A stretch of DNA of 64,000 nt, taken from Spirochaetia bacterium (GTDB lineage: Bacteria > Spirochaetota > Spirochaetia > CADAEX01). A model generated the notes under the pieces. That model worked only from the letters and a program-made list of their open reading frames with translations. It did no database searches and was not told the DNA's origin. Positions within the stretch are counted from its first letter, which is position 1. Each line of letters starts with the position of its first letter. The stretch spans positions 2,720,001-2,784,000 of the forward strand of contig OY759746.1 of NCBI GenBank assembly GCA_963662795.1. Reading direction: 5' to 3'. A program made the position numbers and the translations under genes. Positions 26,049 through 36,476 of this stretch are shown in pieces.

Positions 26049-26275
26049 TTTAGAACTCCTCTTTTTAAATTATTTTTTAAATCTGACGCACAATTTATTC
26101 TAACACTGATCATGAATTTTGCAATCCCATGAAAAATAATTACTACATAAATGTATGTATTTAACTTTTCCGTTAAACAAAAATGTATCATACAAAGTCA
26201 GAATATCTGAACGAACATATTGTTCTCTCTGAATAAATCCCTGTTGTGCAAGTAAATAAAATAAAAAAAACATAT

Positions 26276-26291
26276 TGGCACGTTTATTGCT
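26276..26291 (+). promoter_or_regulatory. sigma54 (RpoN) -24/-12 promoter of amtB-glnK
   Basis: TGGCACG-TTTA-TTGCT, an exact match to the TGGCACG-N4-TTGCW consensus, 35 nt upstream of the amtB start. Confidence 0.8.
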
Positions 26292-26326
26292 GATGAATGT
26301 TTGCAAATAGCATAGGAGGTTATTTA

Positions 26327-27640
26327 ATGCTGAAGAAATTTTTACTTGTATTACTGTTTTTGATGGCTGCATCAGCAGGACTATTTGCAGAGTCGGATAT
26401 TGCAAAGTACGATAACGCTTTTGACATGATCTGGCTCATTCTCTGCGCCGTCCTTGTATTTTTTATGCAGGCCGGATTCGCGATGGTGGAAACAGGTCTT
26501 ACCAGGGCAAAAAATGCGGGAAACATCCTTATGAAAAATTTGATGGATTTTGCCGTGGGGGCTATCGTATACATGGGTGCCGGCTGGGCAATAATGTACG
26601 GGAGCTCTGTATCCGGCCTTTTCGGATCAGATCAGTTTTTTTTAAACGGAGCTGATTTTACAGTTTTGAGGGACTGGATGTTTCAGGTAGTCTTTGCAGC
26701 TACCGCGGCAACGATTGTATCGGGCGCGATGGCGGAAAGAACAAGATTTTCTTCCTACCTGATATATACCGTTTTCATCACAGCTATTATCTATCCTGTA
26801 GTCGGACACTGGATATGGAATGGAGACGGCTGGCTTGCTGCTCTCGGGTTTCATGATTTTGCAGGGTCTACTGTTGTTCACTCAGTCGGCGGCTGGGCAG
26901 CGCTTGCAGGTTCAGTAATTTTAGGCCCGAGGACGGGAAAATATGTAAGGAACGGGAAATCTGTAACAGTACAGGCAATACCGGGGCATAACTTGCCGCT
27001 TGCCAGCCTTGGTGTTTTCATACTCTGGTTCGGATGGTACGGTTTTAACTGCGGCAGCACCTTGTCGGGAACTGATGAGGCAATTTCACTTATTGCCGTA
27101 AACACCACCCTTGGGGCTGCATCAGGGGCTGTTTCTTCAATGGCCGTAATCTGGGGCCTTACGGGAAAACCAGAACCGAGCATGACATTAAACGGCGCGC
27201 TTGCAGGTCTTGTCGGGATTACTGCCGGATGTGCTGTAGTTACTCCATTGGGAGCAATTATGATCGGACTCATAGCTGGTGCGCTTGTTGTTGTATCTGT
27301 GGAATTTATTGATAAAAAAATGCATGTGGATGATCCTGTCGGCGCGATATCGGTACATGGTGTGTGCGGTGTTTGGGGAACAGTTGCGGTCGGGATATTC
27401 GGTTCTACTGATGCTGTTAACGGTCTCTGGTACGGCGGCGGGCTTAAACAGCTTGTGATTCAGCTTACGGGAATTGCAGCTGTATTTATCTGGACAGCGG
27501 CAGTTTCGGCAGTATTGTTCATTATACTTAAAAAGAGTGCCGGTCTCAGGGTTTCACCTGAAGATGAACTTAAGGGTCTTGATTTGACTGAACACGGAAG
27601 CGAATCATATTACGGTTTTCAGATTTTTACAAATCAGTAA
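26327..27640 (+). CDS. amtB: Ammonium transporter
   Basis: FMQAGF, DFAGSTVVHSVGG, LWFGWYGFN and DDPVGAISVHG motifs; AGGAGG SD before ATG 26327. Confidence 0.95.
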   Translation: MLKKFLLVLLFLMAASAGLFAESDIAKYDNAFDMIWLILCAVLVFFMQAGFAMVETGLTRAKNAGNILMKNLMDFAVGAIVYMGAGWAIMYGSSVSGLFGSDQFFLNGADFTVLRDWMFQVVFAATAATIVSGAMAERTRFSSYLIYTVFITAIIYPVVGHWIWNGDGWLAALGFHDFAGSTVVHSVGGWAALAGSVILGPRTGKYVRNGKSVTVQAIPGHNLPLASLGVFILWFGWYGFNCGSTLSGTDEAISLIAVNTTLGAASGAVSSMAVIWGLTGKPEPSMTLNGALAGLVGITAGCAVVTPLGAIMIGLIAGALVVVSVEFIDKKMHVDDPVGAISVHGVCGVWGTVAVGIFGSTDAVNGLWYGGGLKQLVIQLTGIAAVFIWTAAVSAVLFIILKKSAGLRVSPEDELKGLDLTEHGSESYYGFQIFTNQ

Positions 27641-27699
27641 CCCCTATTGAAGGATCAGAAAATTGAAATTGGATAAAAAGATAAATGAAGGAGAATCAG

Positions 27700-28041
27700 A
27701 TGAAACTTGTTATTGCCTATATTCAGCCGTATAAACTGAATGATGTAAAAAAGGAATTATATAAATCAGAAATATATAAAGTATCTGTAACTAACGCAAT
27801 AGGATGCGGACAGCAGGAGGGTTACACAGAACACTACAGGGGGGTAAAAATGGAAGTTAATCTCCTGAAAAAGGTGAGGCTTGAAATAGCTGTTAACGAA
27901 GATTTTGTGAAACCTACGGTAGACGCCATAATAAAGGGCGCCAGGTCCGGAAATATAGGTGATGGGAAAATATTTGTATTGCCTATAGAGGAATGCTACA
28001 GGATAAGAAGCGGAGAAACCGGCAGGGTTGCAATCGGATAG
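27700..28041 (+). CDS. glnK: P-II nitrogen regulatory protein
   Basis: G.GQQ.G.TEHYRG, GDGKIFV and RIRSGE motifs; directly downstream of amtB. Confidence 0.92.
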
Positions 28042-28109
28042 TAAAAGTAATACTTACCTGCCTGTATATGAGTTTTAGTAAAAAAATAAATTACAGTTAC
28101 CTGAAATTT

Positions 28110-28148
28110 CAGTCCGGGAAGATTAAGTATCTCTCCCGGACTGTTTTT
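28110..28148 (+). terminator. Terminator between glnK and tpx
   Basis: CAGTCCGGGA...TCCCGGACTG stem followed by TTTTT. Confidence 0.75.
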
Positions 28149-28157
28149 ATATTGAAA

Positions 28158-28849: not shown

Positions 28850-31141
28850 ATGCAGGAACTTAAAACAGATAATACAAGAAAAGAGGTACTGGGAATCAAA
28901 GGCATGCACTGCGCAAGCTGTGCCGCAAATGTTGAAAGAACTGTCAGAAAAATTCCCGGCATCAGGGATATAAATGTAAATCTTACTGGTGAAAGGGCTG
29001 ATATCTGGCTTGAATCAGGAAAGGTGAGAATATCAGACATAAGGGAAGCGATTACAAAAGCCGGCTATATCCCGGTTGAGCTTGAAGATAGTGATGAAAA
29101 AGAGATAAGGAAAAACAGGGAATTGAAGGATATGGTAAAGGATTTTATCATATCAGCTGCGGCAGCCGTTCTCCTCTTTTATATTGCAATGGCACCCATG
29201 ACAGGGCTTAACCTCCCTTTTCCGTCGTTTATTGAGCCGATGACATATCCCCTTAACTACGGGATTGTCAGTTTACTCCTTGTCCTGCCTTCGCTTTATG
29301 CAGGAAGAAGGTTTTTTACTGCAGGCATTCCATCTCTTTTCAGGTTAAGCCCTAATATGGACAGCCTTGTGGCTGTAGGTGCTTCTGCCGCGATTTTATA
29401 CAGCATCGTTAATCTGGTTTTGATTGCTTCCGGAAGGACTTCTGCTGTAGAGCAGTTATACTTCGAAACTGCAGGAGTTATCATTACCCTTATTCTTCTC
29501 GGAAAAATTCTTGAGAGCAGGGCAAAAAGAAAAACAAGCCGCTCTATCAAGGCGCTGATGAATCTGACTCCGGATAGCGCGGTACGATTGGTTGATGGCA
29601 ATGAGAGGGAAACACCTGTTTCTGATCTTGAACCGGGAGACCTGATAAGGGTAAAACCCGGCGGCCGTATACCGGTTGACGGCATCATAACTGAAGGATA
29701 CAGCGCAGTTGATGAATCAATGCTTACAGGAGAAAGCCTGCCGGTTGAAAAAAATGCAGGATCAGCTGTCACAGGAGGCAGTATAAATAAAACAGGCAGT
29801 TTTATTTTCAGGGCAGAGCGTGTAGGACGTGACACTACACTCGCAAGGATTATCAGACTGGTGGAAGATGCCCAGAACAGTAAGGCTCCGATAGCGCATC
29901 TTGCCGATGAAGTTTCCGCATGGTTTGTCCCTGCCGTGATGCTTGCCGCACTGATTTCTGCGTCCGCATGGATGATTACAGGTGCGGGAATACCTTTCTC
30001 CATGACAGTTCTTACTGCCGTGCTGCTTATTGCATGTCCCTGCGCGCTTGGACTTGCCACTCCCACTGCCATAATGGTAGGCACCGGAAGGGGAGCCGAG
30101 CTTGGAATACTTGTGAAGACAGGTGAAGCACTGCAGACTGCAGCCGGCATAACTGCAGTCATTTTTGACAAGACCGGGACACTTACGGAAGGGAAACCTG
30201 TTGTTACCGACATTATACCACTCCGGATGAGTGAGGACGAATTTCTCTCTCTAATGGCATCGGCAGAGACCTCATCGGGACACCCCCTTGCAGAGGCTAT
30301 TGTCCGTAAAGCCGGCGAAAAGAAACTTGATCTTAACCCTTCGTCAGATTTTAACGCAATACCCGGCGGCGGCATCAGGGCTTCTGTCATTTCCGCCGGA
30401 GGCAGGGTTGAAGTGCTTGCCGGAACAAAAAAACTGCTTGGCAGGGAAGGAGTCAGGCTTGAATCATCAGAAGCGGAAGGTCTGTTTAAAAGAGGAGGTG
30501 AGCTTGCAGAGGATGGGAAAACTCCTATTTATATGGCCGTAAATGAAGCCGGGGAATGGATGGCCGCAGGGCTTGTCGCGATGAGCGACAGCTTAAAGCC
30601 CGGAAGCAGGGAAGCGGTAGCCGGGCTTAAAAAAATGGGAATAAAATCATATATGATAACCGGGGACAATGAAAAAGCGGCCCAGGTAATTGCGCTTGAA
30701 GCGGGAATTGAAGAAGTACGCGCGGAAGTACTGCCGGAAGACAAGGCTGCTGAAATTGTACGTCTGAGGGAACAGGGTTATATTGTTGCCATGGTAGGCG
30801 ACGGCATAAATGATGCGCCTGCCCTTGCAGCCGCGGATGTAGGCATCGCAATAGGAAGCGGCACTGATGTCGCGATCGAAAGCGCGGATATAATTCTTGT
30901 AAAAAGTGATGTGAGGGACGCTGCCGCAGCGATTATGTTATCCCGCGCTGTACTCGGCAACATAAAGCAGAATCTTTTCTGGGCATTTGCATATAATGTA
31001 CTGCTGATACCTGTAGCGGCCGGTGTTCTGACCCTTTTCGGCGGGCCGCTTTTAAATCCAATGTTTGCGGCGGGGGCAATGTCTCTCTCGTCTGTTTCAG
31101 TTGTAAGTAATGCATTAAGATTAAGGAGTTTCCGTAAATGA
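28850..31141 (+). CDS. copA: Cu(I)-translocating P1B-type ATPase
   Basis: GMHCASC metal-binding domain, TGES, CPCALG, DKTGT, HP, GDGIND, YN and M..SS motifs. Start refined to ATG 28850. Confidence 0.93.
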
Positions 31142-31365
31142 AAAGGATAATATTTATGAGGCGGTGTTTGCCTTACTGAATGAAGTGACTAATGCATTAA
31201 GACTAAAGAGTTTCAAGAAATGAGGCGGAAAAGAAAAAACAGTTTTGTTTTATAGACCGAGTGTAGTTAGTAATGCTTTAAGACTAAAGAGTTTTCGCAA
31301 ATGAAAAGGAGAATATTTATGCGGAGGTTTTTGCCTTACTGAATGTGGTTACAAATGCCCTTTGA
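31100..31365 (+). repeat. Four tandem copies (~82-bp period) of the copA 3' end
   Basis: AATGC core at 31109, 31191, 31272 and 31354. Copies translate to [39 protein letters not shown] and VVTNAL*. Spacers 1 and 3 are near-identical. Confidence 0.9.
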
Positions 31366-31423
31366 AGTCAATGTGGACAGGTACAGCCTTACAGGTTAAA
31401 ATGGAGACAGACAGGAAAATAAC

Positions 31424-32665
31424 ATGTTTCCATTTTCAACACTATCGATAATATCCTCATCAATCCTGCTGGTGCTGCTATTTTATGTAATGTTCTATCA
31501 CCCCCGGTCAAGGCAGCTTTTTATCTTTATCCTCCTTACCCTCTCTACGCTGATATTAAGCGTTTCAAGCATATTTTTATATGTAGCCAAAGACCCGGAA
31601 GCAGCCTGGTTCTGGAACCGGTTTACCGCATCATCCTGGGTTCTTATTATTGGTTTGGGGATGCTTCTTGTTATATATTTATACCATGATAATGAAAGCT
31701 CTCCCCGGTATCTGATTCTGATGATAGTTGTCCCATCACTTTTTTTTCTCTACCGCGGGGTTACTGATGGTACAATGGCCAGCGAGTACCTTCCTGGCCC
31801 TTATGGATATTATCCTGTCTACCCTTTAAATTCTCCATGGCTTTATCTTTACATCCTTTATTGTATCCAGTTTATCGTATTCAACTATTATTACCTGATA
31901 AGAAAATACCGCAATTCCAAAAAGCAGAGAATACGCACTCAGGCCCTGATCTACATGGCAGCAGTGTCGGTACCGGTTTTATTCGCATCTTTTTTCGAGA
32001 TCCTGTTTCCATTATTCCGTTTGACAAGATTACCTCCACTTGGACACTTTTTTCTCCTTCCCTATCTTGTGATTGTTCTGTTTTCAATAACGAGATACAG
32101 GCTGATGATGATAAATGTCCCTTTTACGGCAGATATCATTCTTAAAAACATAAACAACCTGGTTGCCCTTTTCGATGAGAAGGGGAATTTTGTATCCATG
32201 AATGAAAGCGGCCTTGATATCCTTGGGTACGATGACACCTGCAGCGAACAGTGCTGCTTCTACAGCCTTTTCCTCGGGAGGGAAAAAGTATGGGATATGA
32301 TTGACAAAAACAGTAAAGACAGCCATTCCGTAATCAATCAGGTTCTTTACCTGAGGGGCTGCAGTGGAATTGCGGTTCCCATGAATGTTTCAATAAAAAT
32401 TATATTTGACGAGTTTGGCGATCATATAGGTTACATAGTAACAGGCAGCAGGCTTGATATGCTGGACAATGCAATGAAGAGGTTTGGTATAACAGAGCGC
32501 GAAAAGACAATTTTGATGCTTCTGCTGCAGGGACTTGAGTATGCTGATATAGCAGAAAAACTTTACATATCCCAATTAACTGTAAAAACCCACATCCACA
32601 ATATCTATGAGAAAACCGGAGCAAAAAACCGCTCACAGCTTATTAGAATATGTTTTATCCATTGA
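31424..32665 (+). CDS. Membrane-bound one-component regulator: 7TM sensor, PAS and LuxR HTH
   Basis: About 7 hydrophobic helices, a PAS-like segment, and C-terminal ITERE...IAEKLYISQLTVKTHIHNIYEK. Confidence 0.85.
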   Translation: MFPFSTLSIISSSILLVLLFYVMFYHPRSRQLFIFILLTLSTLILSVSSIFLYVAKDPEAAWFWNRFTASSWVLIIGLGMLLVIYLYHDNESSPRYLILMIVVPSLFFLYRGVTDGTMASEYLPGPYGYYPVYPLNSPWLYLYILYCIQFIVFNYYYLIRKYRNSKKQRIRTQALIYMAAVSVPVLFASFFEILFPLFRLTRLPPLGHFFLLPYLVIVLFSITRYRLMMINVPFTADIILKNINNLVALFDEKGNFVSMNESGLDILGYDDTCSEQCCFYSLFLGREKVWDMIDKNSKDSHSVINQVLYLRGCSGIAVPMNVSIKIIFDEFGDHIGYIVTGSRLDMLDNAMKRFGITEREKTILMLLLQGLEYADIAEKLYISQLTVKTHIHNIYEKTGAKNRSQLIRICFIH

Positions 32666-32895
32666 TGAACTCAGAATAATAGTTTCAGGTAGGCTGGTTA
32701 CAGCAAAAAATCCATGCATTGGTAAATTATCCCCGCTCAAACCCGTAAAATAAAATAACTCTGTATCTTTTTCTCTCAAAATACTCCGTATGGTCTATGT
32801 CCGATATCCTTCTTAATTCCTATGTTTTAAGTAGGCTTTAAGGAAAATCTATACCCCTTAAAAAGGTGGAAAGCATATAGATGGAGGAGTAATTT

Positions 32896-33951
32896 ATGAA
32901 AAATATAATAAAAAAAACAACTATTTTAATATCTCTGATAACTGCTGCGCTGATAATATTTACAGCCTGCGATATTGCAGGGAGCAGTTCATCATCATCA
33001 TCCTCAGCACCAGATGGGGATGTCCGGTCTATGACAGCCTTTACCATGGTAAATGTACCTGGAGGCCTCACTTTTCCGGCCAACCTGTTTGACAACATCA
33101 TTGAAAACGTAGCAAATGCTTACGCGATGGGGGAGACAGAGGTAACATACGAGCTCTGGAGCGAGGTTTATGACTGGGCAACAGCCGGCAGTGGTGATCC
33201 GGGTGCGGGAACATACACCTTTGCAAATTCAGGATCCCAGGGGGGAGATTTTATAGGGAGCGGACCGATTGGGACCAATCAGCACCCTGTAACCAGGATA
33301 AGCTGGAGGGATGCCATGATATGGATGAACGCCCTGACCGAATACTACAATGCTGTCCATGCTACTGCTTTAACTCCTGTCTACTATACAGATGCAGCTT
33401 TTTCTGTTCTGCAAAGAACTGTAACCGATTCAACTACAACAACGGAAGGGGTACCGGGAAGCCAGGATGCACCCTACGTCAAGCCTGGCGCCGACGGTTT
33501 TCGCCTTCCGACACAGCCTGAATGGGAGCTTGCAGCCCGGTATATCAATGATTCAAACAGCGATGGAGACATAATGGACGCGGGGGAGTTTTATCCCGGA
33601 GTTTTTGCAAGCGGGGCAGATGCCGCATACAACGTGACAGCCTCATCCGATTATGACGGTGACGGTGATATCGATAATACGGCAGATGTAGCGCTTCATG
33701 GAGCCGCCGGAGTTAACTCTACTATATCTGTTAAAGGTTTAAGCCCCAATGCCCTCGGGCTATATGATCTGAGCGGCAATGTCTCTGAATGGAGCTTTGA
33801 TGCCCATGGCGCCAATCCTGAAAACCGTATGAACCTCGGGAGCAGCTGGAGCTATTCCGCACAAATACTTCAGATAGGAACGTTTCTCAACAACAAGCCT
33901 TATCTGGCAGACGGCTCAATAGGTCTCCGTCCGGTAAGGAGTCTTGAATAA
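32896..33951 (+). CDS. Lipoprotein with FGE-sulfatase (SUMF1/CLec-fold) domain
   Basis: FTAC lipobox and Ser linker; ETEVTYELW, HPV..ISW.DA, FRLPT..EWE.AAR and NALGLYDLSGNVSEW motifs. Confidence 0.88.
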   Translation: MKNIIKKTTILISLITAALIIFTACDIAGSSSSSSSSAPDGDVRSMTAFTMVNVPGGLTFPANLFDNIIENVANAYAMGETEVTYELWSEVYDWATAGSGDPGAGTYTFANSGSQGGDFIGSGPIGTNQHPVTRISWRDAMIWMNALTEYYNAVHATALTPVYYTDAAFSVLQRTVTDSTTTTEGVPGSQDAPYVKPGADGFRLPTQPEWELAARYINDSNSDGDIMDAGEFYPGVFASGADAAYNVTASSDYDGDGDIDNTADVALHGAAGVNSTISVKGLSPNALGLYDLSGNVSEWSFDAHGANPENRMNLGSSWSYSAQILQIGTFLNNKPYLADGSIGLRPVRSLE

Positions 33952-33993
33952 TAAAATCCCGAACGGATAAGCCAGATTTCGAAGGAGAAAATT

Positions 33994-35046
33994 ATGAAGA
34001 TTTATAAAGAAAAAATAATAGTTATTCTGACATTGTCAATATTAACGATAATTCTGTCATCAGCCTGCGATCTGGGCGGAGGCGGAGGAGGCGATGAGCA
34101 GGCAGTCGATCTTACCGATCCTGACAGAATTTCCGCAGCCCCGGTTATTTCGCCTGAATCGGGTGAGCATTATCTTATAAGCGGGAATCAATTATTGATT
34201 ACTCTTGATGTGTCGGTTCCGGGAGCAGATATATTCTATACAACAGACGGCTTGGAGCCGACGAAGGATTCAACCCCCTACACGGCTCCTTTTCCCATCA
34301 GCGGCTCAAGCATGGTCCGCTCCATTGCTTATGAGGCAGGGAAAGAGGCGAGTGCCGTAACCGAAGCAGTGTTCACCATAATGGCGGCATCAGGGACTGC
34401 GGAAGCCCCTGTAATAAGCCCATCCGGAAGCGAACTCAATAATCCGGCAGAAATAACCATGTCAAGCGCGACGCCGGGTGCATCAATTTACTACACTACC
34501 GACGGCAGCGCACCCTCTGCCCTCTCGACACCATACACAGGCCCATTCACCATAGACGCTCCGGTTGAAAAAGTGAGAGCTGTTGCGGTAAAGACGGGAG
34601 AGGAACGCAGTTATGCACTTGAAAACTACAGTTTTGTCGCATCCGGCCCAACTGTAACCAGGAAGAGTCAATGGGACGGCGGTCACACCAGTATGAACTA
34701 CATAGTGACGGACGGAGGTGTCTTCAGTGCAGGGTATTATGAAGAGCCCGATCGGGGAACTAAACTTATAGCAACAACAGCTACAGCTGGTGGTGAAATT
34801 CGCTACACTATTGACGGAAGTACTCCCTCAGAATCATCAATTCTCCACACGGGGCAGCCGGTTGTGTGGTGGGAGAGGGCCGACACATCCGCCCCATATT
34901 ATCTTTATATCGCAGGAGAGAAGGTTACCGCGTCTGTAACCTTATCGACAGGGATGAAGATCCGGGTTTTCAGGGAGGGATATCTCCCCAGTCCTGTATT
35001 TACCATGGGGTTTTCAAAGGAAGCCCCGATACCTCGTCCGGATTAA
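33994..35046 (+). CDS. Lipoprotein with three chitobiase C-terminal/Fn3-associated domains
   Basis: SSAC lipobox and Gly linker; three I.YT.DG..P repeats. Confidence 0.8.
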   Translation: MKIYKEKIIVILTLSILTIILSSACDLGGGGGGDEQAVDLTDPDRISAAPVISPESGEHYLISGNQLLITLDVSVPGADIFYTTDGLEPTKDSTPYTAPFPISGSSMVRSIAYEAGKEASAVTEAVFTIMAASGTAEAPVISPSGSELNNPAEITMSSATPGASIYYTTDGSAPSALSTPYTGPFTIDAPVEKVRAVAVKTGEERSYALENYSFVASGPTVTRKSQWDGGHTSMNYIVTDGGVFSAGYYEEPDRGTKLIATTATAGGEIRYTIDGSTPSESSILHTGQPVVWWERADTSAPYYLYIAGEKVTASVTLSTGMKIRVFREGYLPSPVFTMGFSKEAPIPRPD

Positions 35047-35180
35047 AACCTGTGAGGGTGCGGCTTCCGGCAGATTGATTACAGATGGGGAAAAAATATA
35101 TTGACTGTATGGGGTTTTAATCTTAATATACTACCAAGTTAGTCTGAATTAGTATGTATGAAAAATAAGGAGGCCGCAAT

Positions 35181-36476
35181 ATGGCAGATAAAAAATACAG
35201 GTTTGAAACATTATCCCTCCATGCAGGGCAGGTGCCGGACAGCAGTCTGTCGAGAGCTGTCCCTGTTCACAGGACAAGTTCATATCTGTTTAAAAATACT
35301 CAGCATGCTGCAAACCTTTTTGATTTAAAGGAACCTGGAAATATATATACCCGTCTGGGCGGCCCTACACAGGATGCGCTTGAACAGCGCATAACTGCCC
35401 TCGAAGGTGGAGTCGCATCAGTTGCCCTTGCCTCAGGCACTAGCGCAGTCAACTACGCAGTTGTTACAATTGCAAAACAGGGGGATGAGATAGTTTCCGC
35501 AAATAACCTTTACGGCGGAACATATACAATGTTTGATACGATTCTTCCCAATTTCGGAATCAGGACAAATTTTGTAGATCCGAAAAATCCTGATAATTTT
35601 GAGAAAGCAATAACGCCCAAAACAAAGATTGTCTATGTTGAAACAATGGGAAATCCTGTTCTTGATTTTACAGATATAAAAGCAGTTGCAGACATAGCCC
35701 ATTCGCATAATATCCCCCTTGTGGTGGATGCTACATTTACAACCCCGTATCTCCTTCAGTCAATTGAACATGGAGCAGATATTGTAATTAACTCTCTTAC
35801 AAAATGGATTGGAGGACACGGCACTGCTATCGGAGGAATAGTAACTGATTCAGGCAGGTTTGACTGGAAGAAGGGGAATTTCCCGATGTTCAGCGAACCT
35901 GACCCCAACTACCACGGACTTAAGTGGGCCTATGACCTTCCGCCGCAGCTTGCCCCTGCAGCATTCGCTCTCCGGCTCCGGACAGTCCCGTTAAGAAACC
36001 TGGGCGCGGCAATATCTCCGGATAATGCATGGCTTTTTATTCAGGGGGCGGAAACACTGTCTCTCCGCATGCAGAGGCATTGTGAAAACGCAATGAAAGC
36101 CGCGGAATTCCTCTCAAGGGATAAAAGGGTAGAGTGGGTAAGGTATCCCGGTCTGCCGGGTGATCCGTCGCATCAGACCGCGAAGAAATACCTTGAAAAA
36201 GGATTCGGAGGGATGGTTGTGTTCGGCATAAAAGAGGGATATCAGGCAGCGGTAAAGTTTATAGACAACATAAAGCTCTTCTCTCATCTCGCTAATGTGG
36301 GTGACGCGAAAAGCCTTGTCCTTCATCCGGCATCAACTTCCCATTCACAGCTGACAGAAGAGCAGCAGAGGTCCGGAGGACTTACACCCGATCTGATCCG
36401 GCTTTCAATCGGGCTTGAGCATATAGACGATATTCTCGAAGCGCTTGATGAAGGACTTGAAGCTTCCCGGAAATAA
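35181..36476 (+). CDS. metY: O-acetylhomoserine aminocarboxypropyltransferase (sulfhydrylase)
   Basis: LHAGQ, IYTRL, SLTKWIGGHG (PLP lysine) and HLANVGDAKSL..HPASTSH motifs. Confidence 0.92.
   Translation: MADKKYRFETLSLHAGQVPDSSLSRAVPVHRTSSYLFKNTQHAANLFDLKEPGNIYTRLGGPTQDALEQRITALEGGVASVALASGTSAVNYAVVTIAKQGDEIVSANNLYGGTYTMFDTILPNFGIRTNFVDPKNPDNFEKAITPKTKIVYVETMGNPVLDFTDIKAVADIAHSHNIPLVVDATFTTPYLLQSIEHGADIVINSLTKWIGGHGTAIGGIVTDSGRFDWKKGNFPMFSEPDPNYHGLKWAYDLPPQLAPAAFALRLRTVPLRNLGAAISPDNAWLFIQGAETLSLRMQRHCENAMKAAEFLSRDKRVEWVRYPGLPGDPSHQTAKKYLEKGFGGMVVFGIKEGYQAAVKFIDNIKLFSHLANVGDAKSLVLHPASTSHSQLTEEQQRSGGLTPDLIRLSIGLEHIDDILEALDEGLEASRK

Follow-up and report, generated by a model that had tools for sequence, protein, structure and literature searches.

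Integrative elements, among them prophages, integrative and conjugative elements (ICEs), integrative and mobilizable elements (IMEs) and cis-mobilizable elements (CIMEs), insert at the 3' ends of genes, regenerate those ends and accrete in tandem. Here we describe a 266-base array at the 3' end of copA, a gene predicted to encode a copper-exporting ATPase, in the genome of a Spirochaetia bacterium (assembly GCA_963662795.1, contig OY759746.1). The window is the whole stretch of 64,000 nucleotides analysed, from position 2,720,001 to 2,784,000 of that contig. The array is probably a non-coding stack of copA 3' ends, each of which was once the working end of a copA allele. As in integrative elements, the stack would hold displaced former ends in direct orientation, their differences being mostly silent because each was once functional. 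Unlike them, it shows no integrase, element body or identical core, only ~40 nt lie between copies, the spacers are unique within the genome, and several unrelated genes are affected.

Higher-order tandem repeats evolve by unequal crossing-over, and homology-facilitated illegitimate recombination operates in transformation. With these the copA array shares a dimeric unit, differences between species in copy number and order, and recent perfect duplications elsewhere in the source genome (G000, 3.93 Mb); neither process predicts coding-competent orphan gene parts beside diverging spacers. The orphan ends of rhs and cdiA genes carry different toxin tips together with immunity genes, and are adaptive. 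Their arrays reportedly form by C-terminal displacement, incoming DNA recombining in the conserved part of the gene, as Poole et al. 2011 are said to have described. At copA, as in those arrays, old 3' ends are piled up downstream of the working gene. Displacement of the rhs/cdiA type was rejected, as the copA orphans encode the identical type of 13-residue tail and have no gene between them.

Furuta, Abe and Kobayashi (2010; PMC2853133) described insertion with long target duplication, which leaves direct repeats of >30 bp with no mobility gene. They report that some of the duplications overlap the 3' end of a gene, that they occur mostly in naturally competent species, and that near-identical repeats (e.g. 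44/46) surround kilobase-sized restriction-modification cargo (PMC2853133). The copA stack resembles these insertions in its long direct duplication, in its lack of mobility genes and in that the source genome encodes a ComEC-family protein; it differs in that copies 1-4 enclose no cargo and diverge by 17-21%, and in that the only cargo (3.8 kb) is bordered by a copy on just one of its sides. In the literature, supplementary files excluded, cargo-less stacked ends of housekeeping genes were not found, only the analogues named above.

We favour, with a probability of about 0.5, the reading that the orphan copies are displaced former working ends, generated by duplication across the stop codon and by out-of-register recombination, partly with diverged alleles. 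The original prediction had placed recurrences of the copA end at 31182, 31263 and, truncated, at 31345, with periods of 82, 81 and 82 bp, and had described copies 2 and 4 as keeping the V[ST]NAL motif by means of different codons; all of these features are present at those places (Table 1). Spread over three different frames, the four copies give copA-tail peptides that close in a stop, copy 4 contributing only ~18 nt. The units stand head to tail at periods of 82, 81 and 82 nt, with four copies in G000 and two in a sister species of the same genus (G002), and in this formal sense constitute a tandem repeat. Tandem Repeats Finder delimited 31108..31345 (period 81, 2.9 copies, 63% matches, score 224), and a repeat search returned three 58-nt copies at 82- and 81-nt spacing as well as a 96-nt pair, 163 nt apart, with 84% identity. 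The higher-order layout is thus end, spacer A, end, spacer B, followed by a diverged module of end, spacer A' and truncated end (module II), and the unit that truly repeats is a dimer of 163 nt containing spacers of two types. Copies 2, 3 and 4 each follow an ACYGARTG junction.

Spacers A and A' are identical at 36/40 positions. Over their full length spacers A and B are not alignable (418/2000 shuffles reach the score), while only 33/3000 shuffles score as high as spacer B does when aligned with gaps to the 3' portion of spacer A. Descent of the spacers from decayed upstream copA coding sequence was ruled out, with 1346/3000 shuffles reaching the score.

Table 1. Features of the copA array, its surroundings and similar loci. 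Coordinates without prefix are window positions; C1 coordinates refer to the G000 contig and lie outside the window.
Feature	Position	Strand	Description
copA	28850..31141	+	763 aa from ATG at 28850; Pfam HMA, E1-E2_ATPase, Hydrolase
Copy 1	31100..31141	+	working last 13 codons and TGA stop of copA
Spacer A	31142..31181	+	40 nt; 3' end is the ACTGAATG junction
Copy 2	31182..31223	+	orphan end in +1 frame relative to copA, own TGA
Spacer B	31224..31262	+	39 nt; 3' end is ACCGAGTG
Copy 3	31263..31304	+	pristine orphan end, frame as copy 2, own TGA
Spacer A'	31305..31344	+	second copy of spacer A
Copy 4	31345..31362	+	shortened orphan end; ~first 18 nt kept, likeness ends after the NAL codons
G000-only segment	31263..35089	+	copy 3, spacer A', copy 4 and three genes; synteny blocks with G002 stop at 31223 and restart at 35090
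Promoter-like site before 7TM-LuxR gene	31374..31402	+	10/12 consensus letters; consensus match only
7TM-LuxR regulator	31424..32665		Pfam
FGE-sulfatase-domain protein	32896..33951		Pfam
CHB_HEX_C-domain protein	33994..35046		Pfam
metY-like gene and conserved promoter region	35090..36476	+	Cys/Met-metabolism pyridoxal phosphate (PLP) enzyme; directly behind spacer B in G002
oadA-like locus (L117)	C1:1250200-1250400	minus	biotinyl-domain gene, then OAD_beta gene (Pfam)
GDPD-family locus (L118)	C1:1769749-1769883		tail repeat, period 62 nt
Sigma-54 activator locus (L119)	C1:2638658-2639169		Fis-type helix-turn-helix (HTH); 6.5 units of 79 nt

The differences between copies carry the argument for former working ends. 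Copies 1 and 2 agree at 33 of 42 letters, copies 1 and 3 at 35 and copies 2 and 3 at 34. The seven letters that separate copies 1 and 3 comprise six silent changes and one R/K replacement, exactly as had been listed beforehand, and none of 5000 simulations of seven random changes gave six or more silent ones. In G002, the working end and the orphan differ by seven silent and three replacement letters. Both comparisons (6/1 and 7/3) bear out the earlier claim that the copies behave as former working ends and do not follow neutral decay. Across 13 comparisons of orphan and working ends, from four genes and two genomes, the 70 differences divide into 44 silent ones and 26 replacements, where chance would give 12.1 silent changes, and they fall on codon positions one, two and three in the numbers 14, 12 and 44; some of these pairs have variants in common and hence are not independent. 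The gene parts of the orphans are also far more alike (copies 2 and 3, 34/42) than the spacers behind them (B against A-type, ~19/40), so that uniform decay of a single duplicated unit does not fit. A simple, neutrally decaying tandem repeat was rejected on both grounds, the unequal divergence of its parts and the codon structure of the differences.

The copies appear to differ in age. Copy 2 has decayed somewhat, with V replaced by E, S by T and R by K at two sites, and copies 2 and 4, the one decayed and the other truncated, are probably the older orphans, copy 3 probably being a recently stranded working end. Of five informative sites, four show copy 3 sharing the letter of the G002 working end while copy 1 differs, the pattern to be expected were copy 3 an older resident end.

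Among 41 genomes including G000, 21 match the interval 30400..31700, and past the stop codon only G002 does. Its array has a period of 85 and consists of a working end, spacer A, one orphan and spacer B, and the metY-like promoter and gene follow directly; the 36 nt between synteny blocks in G002 align to spacer B. Spacer A of G000 matches the G002 spacer at 29/40 positions (0/2000 shuffles reach the score), and spacer B matches its G002 counterpart at 24/39 (11/2000 shuffles). The best copA matches in a further relative (G001) and in G013, G007, G010 and G038 show no second tail within 420-700 nt downstream in three frames. The number of units therefore varies among relatives, as had been anticipated: four in G000, two in G002 and none in G001 and four others. 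Among 80 metagenome copA loci (<=64% protein identity), 72 have a recognizable tail and 0/72 have an orphan, a second tail motif having been sought within 1500 nt downstream or in all sequence present.

The expectation that orphans would match working ends elsewhere held in part. For the G002 orphan the nearest match is the working end of G000 (35/42), copy 3 of G000 matches the G002 working end at 33/42, and copy 2 of G000 matches the G002 orphan at 34/42. Against this, in a comparison with 81 working copA ends, unrelated ones from metagenomes share 24-28/33 letters with every copy, a level that any two working copA ends reach even across unrelated taxa, so that resemblance to some working allele elsewhere counts for little by itself. 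The G002 orphan carries an L to F change within the otherwise invariant NAL motif.

Module II forms the left edge of a 3.8-kb segment missing from G001 and G002 (0/2). Its GC content is unremarkable, and its right edge (35040..35090) contains no copA-tail copy.

Similar scars occur at other genes of the same genome. A scan comparing the last 42 letters of 5022 stop-to-stop open reading frames (ORFs; at least 120 aa) with the next 500 nt returned 11 ORFs with at least 30/42 letters repeated downstream, and six in an upstream 500-nt control. The 11 comprise three rows of clustered regularly interspaced short palindromic repeats (CRISPR), one 381-nt coding repeat, one antisense ORF and six gene-end repeats, three of which resemble copA: those of an oadA-like gene, a GDPD gene and a sigma-54 activator gene. 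In a whole-genome run, Tandem Repeats Finder listed 11 non-CRISPR repeats of period at least 40, four of them spanning a stop codon.

In the oadA-like gene, the last 11 codons recur 81 nt downstream with five silent and no replacement changes, and a third, degenerate copy abuts the start of the OAD_beta (oadB) gene, bringing the number in G000 to three. In G002 there are four copies, and both spacer types recur (33/45 and 34/47 identical) in another order; in both species only the last copy, next to oadB, is degenerate. The GDPD gene has two copies at a 62-nt period in both G000 and G002, differing in G000 by four silent and four replacement letters; in G001 only one end is present, which matches the type that is the orphan in G000 and may be a hybrid left by a deletion between copies. 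At the sigma-54 activator gene, units 1-3 are identical and units 4-7 form a mosaic of two silent-site haplotypes, with unit variants that are nearly all silent and include an AGA/CGG arginine pair. Unit 5 shows four silent and no replacement changes, with one change in its 28-nt spacer, and a deletion has fused the last unit to a small gene at that gene's 3' end. In G002 the small gene is intact, and the stack there comprises ~3.5 degenerate units, each 99-100 nt long.

Two further repeats across a stop codon were observed in G000, one of 102 nt with 98% identity that includes a terminator-like hairpin (C1:1791179-1791378), and one with approximately four copies of a 32-nt unit (C1:3914380-3914560).

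If the orphans are displaced ends, the stack could have been assembled in three steps. A short duplication spanning the stop codon (tail plus ~40 nt of flank) would have arisen before the split between G000 and G002, and divergence of its two units would have produced the dimer of end, spacer A, end and spacer B. In the G000 lineage, the diverged module II (copy 3, spacer A' and copy 4) would then have come to stand behind the first module, having arrived or been retained along with the three accessory genes, most plausibly by unequal homologous recombination or by a homology-anchored illegitimate join, the partner DNA coming from a diverged strain whose copA ended in copy 3. Exchange within the genome and with DNA of related strains would add, remove and reorder units and strand old working ends, and since the copies provide homology for more unequal exchange, stacks would grow, shrink and reshuffle. 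We infer this recombination route, and with it a putatively foreign origin of module II and a presumed lack of function of the orphans, from comparison of the sequences. G000 encodes a ComEC-family protein, which makes uptake of DNA conceivable; loss of mismatch repair was rejected as an enabling condition, since MutS (two matches) and MutL are both encoded.

Several observations weigh against displaced working ends. Copies 1 and 2 differ by two silent and seven replacement letters, with no silent bias. The spacers are 62-73% identical between G000 and G002, above the fourfold degenerate (4-fold) sites of copA (47% over 353 sites, at 78% DNA identity for the gene) and of the metY-like gene (0.51 over 209 sites). 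This conservation of the array reflects either constraint, or exchange after the species split, or a non-coding rate of about one-third of the silent rate. Under such a rate, approximately half of the differences would be silent even for copies that evolved in place, and the bias between copies 1 and 3 alone would then not be significant (estimated P ~0.07). The background similarity of metagenome working ends means that the copies are not assignable to alleles. Spacer lengths at all four genes are uniformly short (21-57 nt), which random illegitimate joins do not predict, and no donor was found: among 40 relatives, homologues of the 7TM-LuxR gene reach at most 28% identity, and none of them adjoins a copA.

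A diverged contig from a close metagenome relative (run X8) points in the same direction. It is 166 nt long, covers 31184..31344 at a depth of ~3, crosses copy 2, spacer B and copy 3, and shows 12 differences; copA pieces from that run differ at 6/190 and 5/189 letters. Numbers are small, and seven of the 12 differences are itemized: the four listed in orphan copies 2 and 3 (31214, 31268, 31277 and 31289) are all third-position and silent, and the three listed in spacer B show no third-position pattern. Among the copA differences listed, 6/7 of those checked are third-position and silent. These changes in the orphans are the one observation to hint at ongoing constraint or exchange, as opposed to dead relics.

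Tandem duplication in place, first of 82 nt and then of 163 nt, with no foreign DNA and slow decay of the orphans, would explain the silent excess by fast change of the working copy at silent sites while the orphans change little. Tandem repeats typically show such a dimer layout, G000 has recent, near-perfect duplications that run across stop codons (the 102-nt unit at 98% and the 79-nt units, three of them identical), spacer B may share ancestry with the 3' part of spacer A (33/3000 shuffles), and the differences between copies 1 and 3 are compatible with this account at the one-third non-coding rate considered above. It fits poorly with orphan gene parts kept much better than spacers (34/42 and ~19/40), with the purely silent differences of the oadA-like orphan (5 silent, 0 replacement) and of sigma-54 activator unit 5 (4 silent, 0 replacement), with an order of oadA-like spacer types that is not alike between the species, and with the coincidence of module II and a 3.8-kb insertion. 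On balance we regard duplication in place alone as rather unlikely.

Two 13-codon mini-ORFs lie in the array (31138-31178 and 31301-31341), each with an ATG that overlaps the TGA of copy 1 or copy 3 and with a Shine-Dalgarno-like AAGGA/AAGGAG upstream. Their peptides differ at 2/13 residues, and two further arginine codons are swapped silently. Spacer A folds weakly, at -3.4 kcal/mol (z -2.5), as does spacer B, at -4.5 kcal/mol (z -2.5), 6/200 shuffles equalling each.

Orphans kept by selection, either as spare ends that deletions join back onto the gene, with a cost in offspring when a spare is damaged, or because the repeats at the copA 3' region act in cis on regulation or serve a coding function, would account for the 34/42 identity of copy 2 between G000 and G002 despite 47% at 4-fold sites, for the conservation of the spacers, for the third-position differences in 4/4 listed cases of the metagenome contig, and for the single GDPD end of G001, which resembles a hybrid of the G000 working and orphan ends. 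A +1 frame is also open from the last codons of the gene through the next copy in 3/3 modules. Constraint of this kind is hard to reconcile with the V to E change in copy 2, the L to F change in the NAL motif of the G002 orphan and the truncation of copy 4. Both mini-ORFs are absent from G002, Rfam returned no match to the array at E up to 1, and the fold z-score of the array is -0.68. The folds of spacer A' (-1.1) and of the G002 spacer (-2.3) do not beat shuffles, so that no hairpin is conserved among the copA spacers. The longest identical runs between copA copies are ~13 nt, a poor substrate for frequent re-use, and alignment of spacer A between G000 and G002 needs three separate 1-nt gaps, so that no reading frame is conserved through the spacer. 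The idea that the orphans are translated, through a +1 shift or from start codons within them, was rejected, as the starts and mini-ORFs are not kept in G002 and the gaps break the frame. Selection on the orphans is accordingly an explanation that we consider unlikely; stranded ends may still be usable as spares through deletions between copies.

Serial site-specific integration at the copA 3' end had been the original proposal, either by a tiny non-autonomous unit of ~82 bp or by islands reduced to scars, each bringing a replacement end. Stacked replacement ends with a recurring ACYGARTG junction and the 3.8-kb accessory segment that abuts the array would suit such a process, and elements that regenerate gene 3' ends and accrete in tandem are well known. 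The tests for an element were negative. No integrase, transposase or reverse-transcriptase family was found in 28/28 ORFs between 18216 and 48293, which agrees with the earlier statement that no recombinase is encoded here. A profile of the copies found only the three full copies in the 3.93-Mb genome (E 2.5e-9 or better), the next match (C1:2814019, E 0.43) being discarded as a chance resemblance in an MreB-like gene. The spacer A profile matched A and A' only, and in a BLAST search of the whole array against the genome only the array itself fell below E 0.007. The proposed search for further copies of spacer and junction thus returned none in the genome, and in the species-genome collection the junction pattern matched a single stretch, the array of G002. 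The copy pattern had 0 matches in viral contigs.

The junction itself is an 8-nt degenerate motif with no identical core. The accessory segment has a copA-tail copy on its left side only, no hairpin is conserved, and 0/72 distant copA loci have an orphan. The 163-nt dimer period and the three unrelated genes that have like stacks with unrelated spacers count further against an incoming ~82-bp unit or scars of serially integrated islands. Stacks at four unrelated sequences, with unrelated and locally unique spacers, cannot be explained by a site-specific element. Scars of such elements (attL/attR accretion, CIME-like) were therefore rejected, there being no recombinase in the 28 ORFs, no single specific target and, apart from the array of G002, no match to the site in the species genomes or viral contigs, and integration at copA is improbable. 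The best reading is that no dedicated element built the stack and that the same process acted at several genes of the genus.

Two other repeat systems were also set aside. A CRISPR array is contradicted by repeats that are 79-83% alike, spacers A and A' that are 90% alike and the lack of a cas family nearby. A diversity-generating retroelement (DGR) is contradicted by the differences between copies 1 and 3, 3/7 of which are T/C with adenine in neither copy, and by the lack of a reverse-transcriptase family in the 28 ORFs. G000 does have a CRISPR array elsewhere (C1:2328009-2332237, period 65-67 nt), with a different repeat and unrelated to the copA array.

An assembly artefact, in which strain variants of the copA end were joined by the assembler, would be in keeping with the silent-site differences between copies, which resemble strain variation, and with a genome contamination estimate of 5.72%, yet it is very unlikely given an independently built 12,328-nt contig from run X4 that spans 30961..35400 with 0 differences and 0 gaps, the diverged X8 contig, and the two-copy form of G002 in another assembly. 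In run X7, identical short contigs flank the array on both sides, and at least 99% of the sampled words of 30800..31700 are present in six runs of two studies (run X1 has all of them), one of which may be the source of the assembly.

Should displaced ends be the correct reading, such stacks would be an archive of allele turnover at conserved genes: every orphan would date and type one earlier recombination event, and strains could be compared for these events even where the donors are missing. The occurrence at four housekeeping-type genes of one genus (a copper pump, a decarboxylase subunit, a phosphodiesterase and a sigma-54 activator) suggests an overlooked, generic recombination at gene ends, as opposed to a peculiarity of copA. 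Tentatively, and with considerable doubt, gene-end swapping may be a general process that needs no recombinase, in which short diverged pieces time and again replace the last 10-17 codons of housekeeping genes, strand the old end ~20-60 nt downstream and leave a layered record of alleles in many lineages. Annotators should avoid labelling such arrays as pseudogenes of independent origin, as CRISPR-like arrays or as mobile elements. Were the orphans instead under selection, at which the purely third-position changes in the X8 relative hint, they would represent a new kind of constraint on untranslated DNA.

The host gene is predicted to encode a P1B-type copper-exporting ATPase. Its start was chosen by alignment with G002, the longest ORF beginning at TTG 28772. 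The product contains the motifs CxxC, CPC, DKTGT, HP, GDGIND, YN(x)4P and MxxSS, which place it in P1B-1, a set that we take to denote a Cu(I)-exporting pump. Behind the G000-only segment, the promoter and leader of the metY-like gene (35090-35180) are ~90% conserved by eye between G000 and G002, compared with ~50% at 4-fold sites. Upstream of copA, an ammonium transporter gene and a P-II gene (26125-28156) form a second G000-only block between stretches syntenic with G002.

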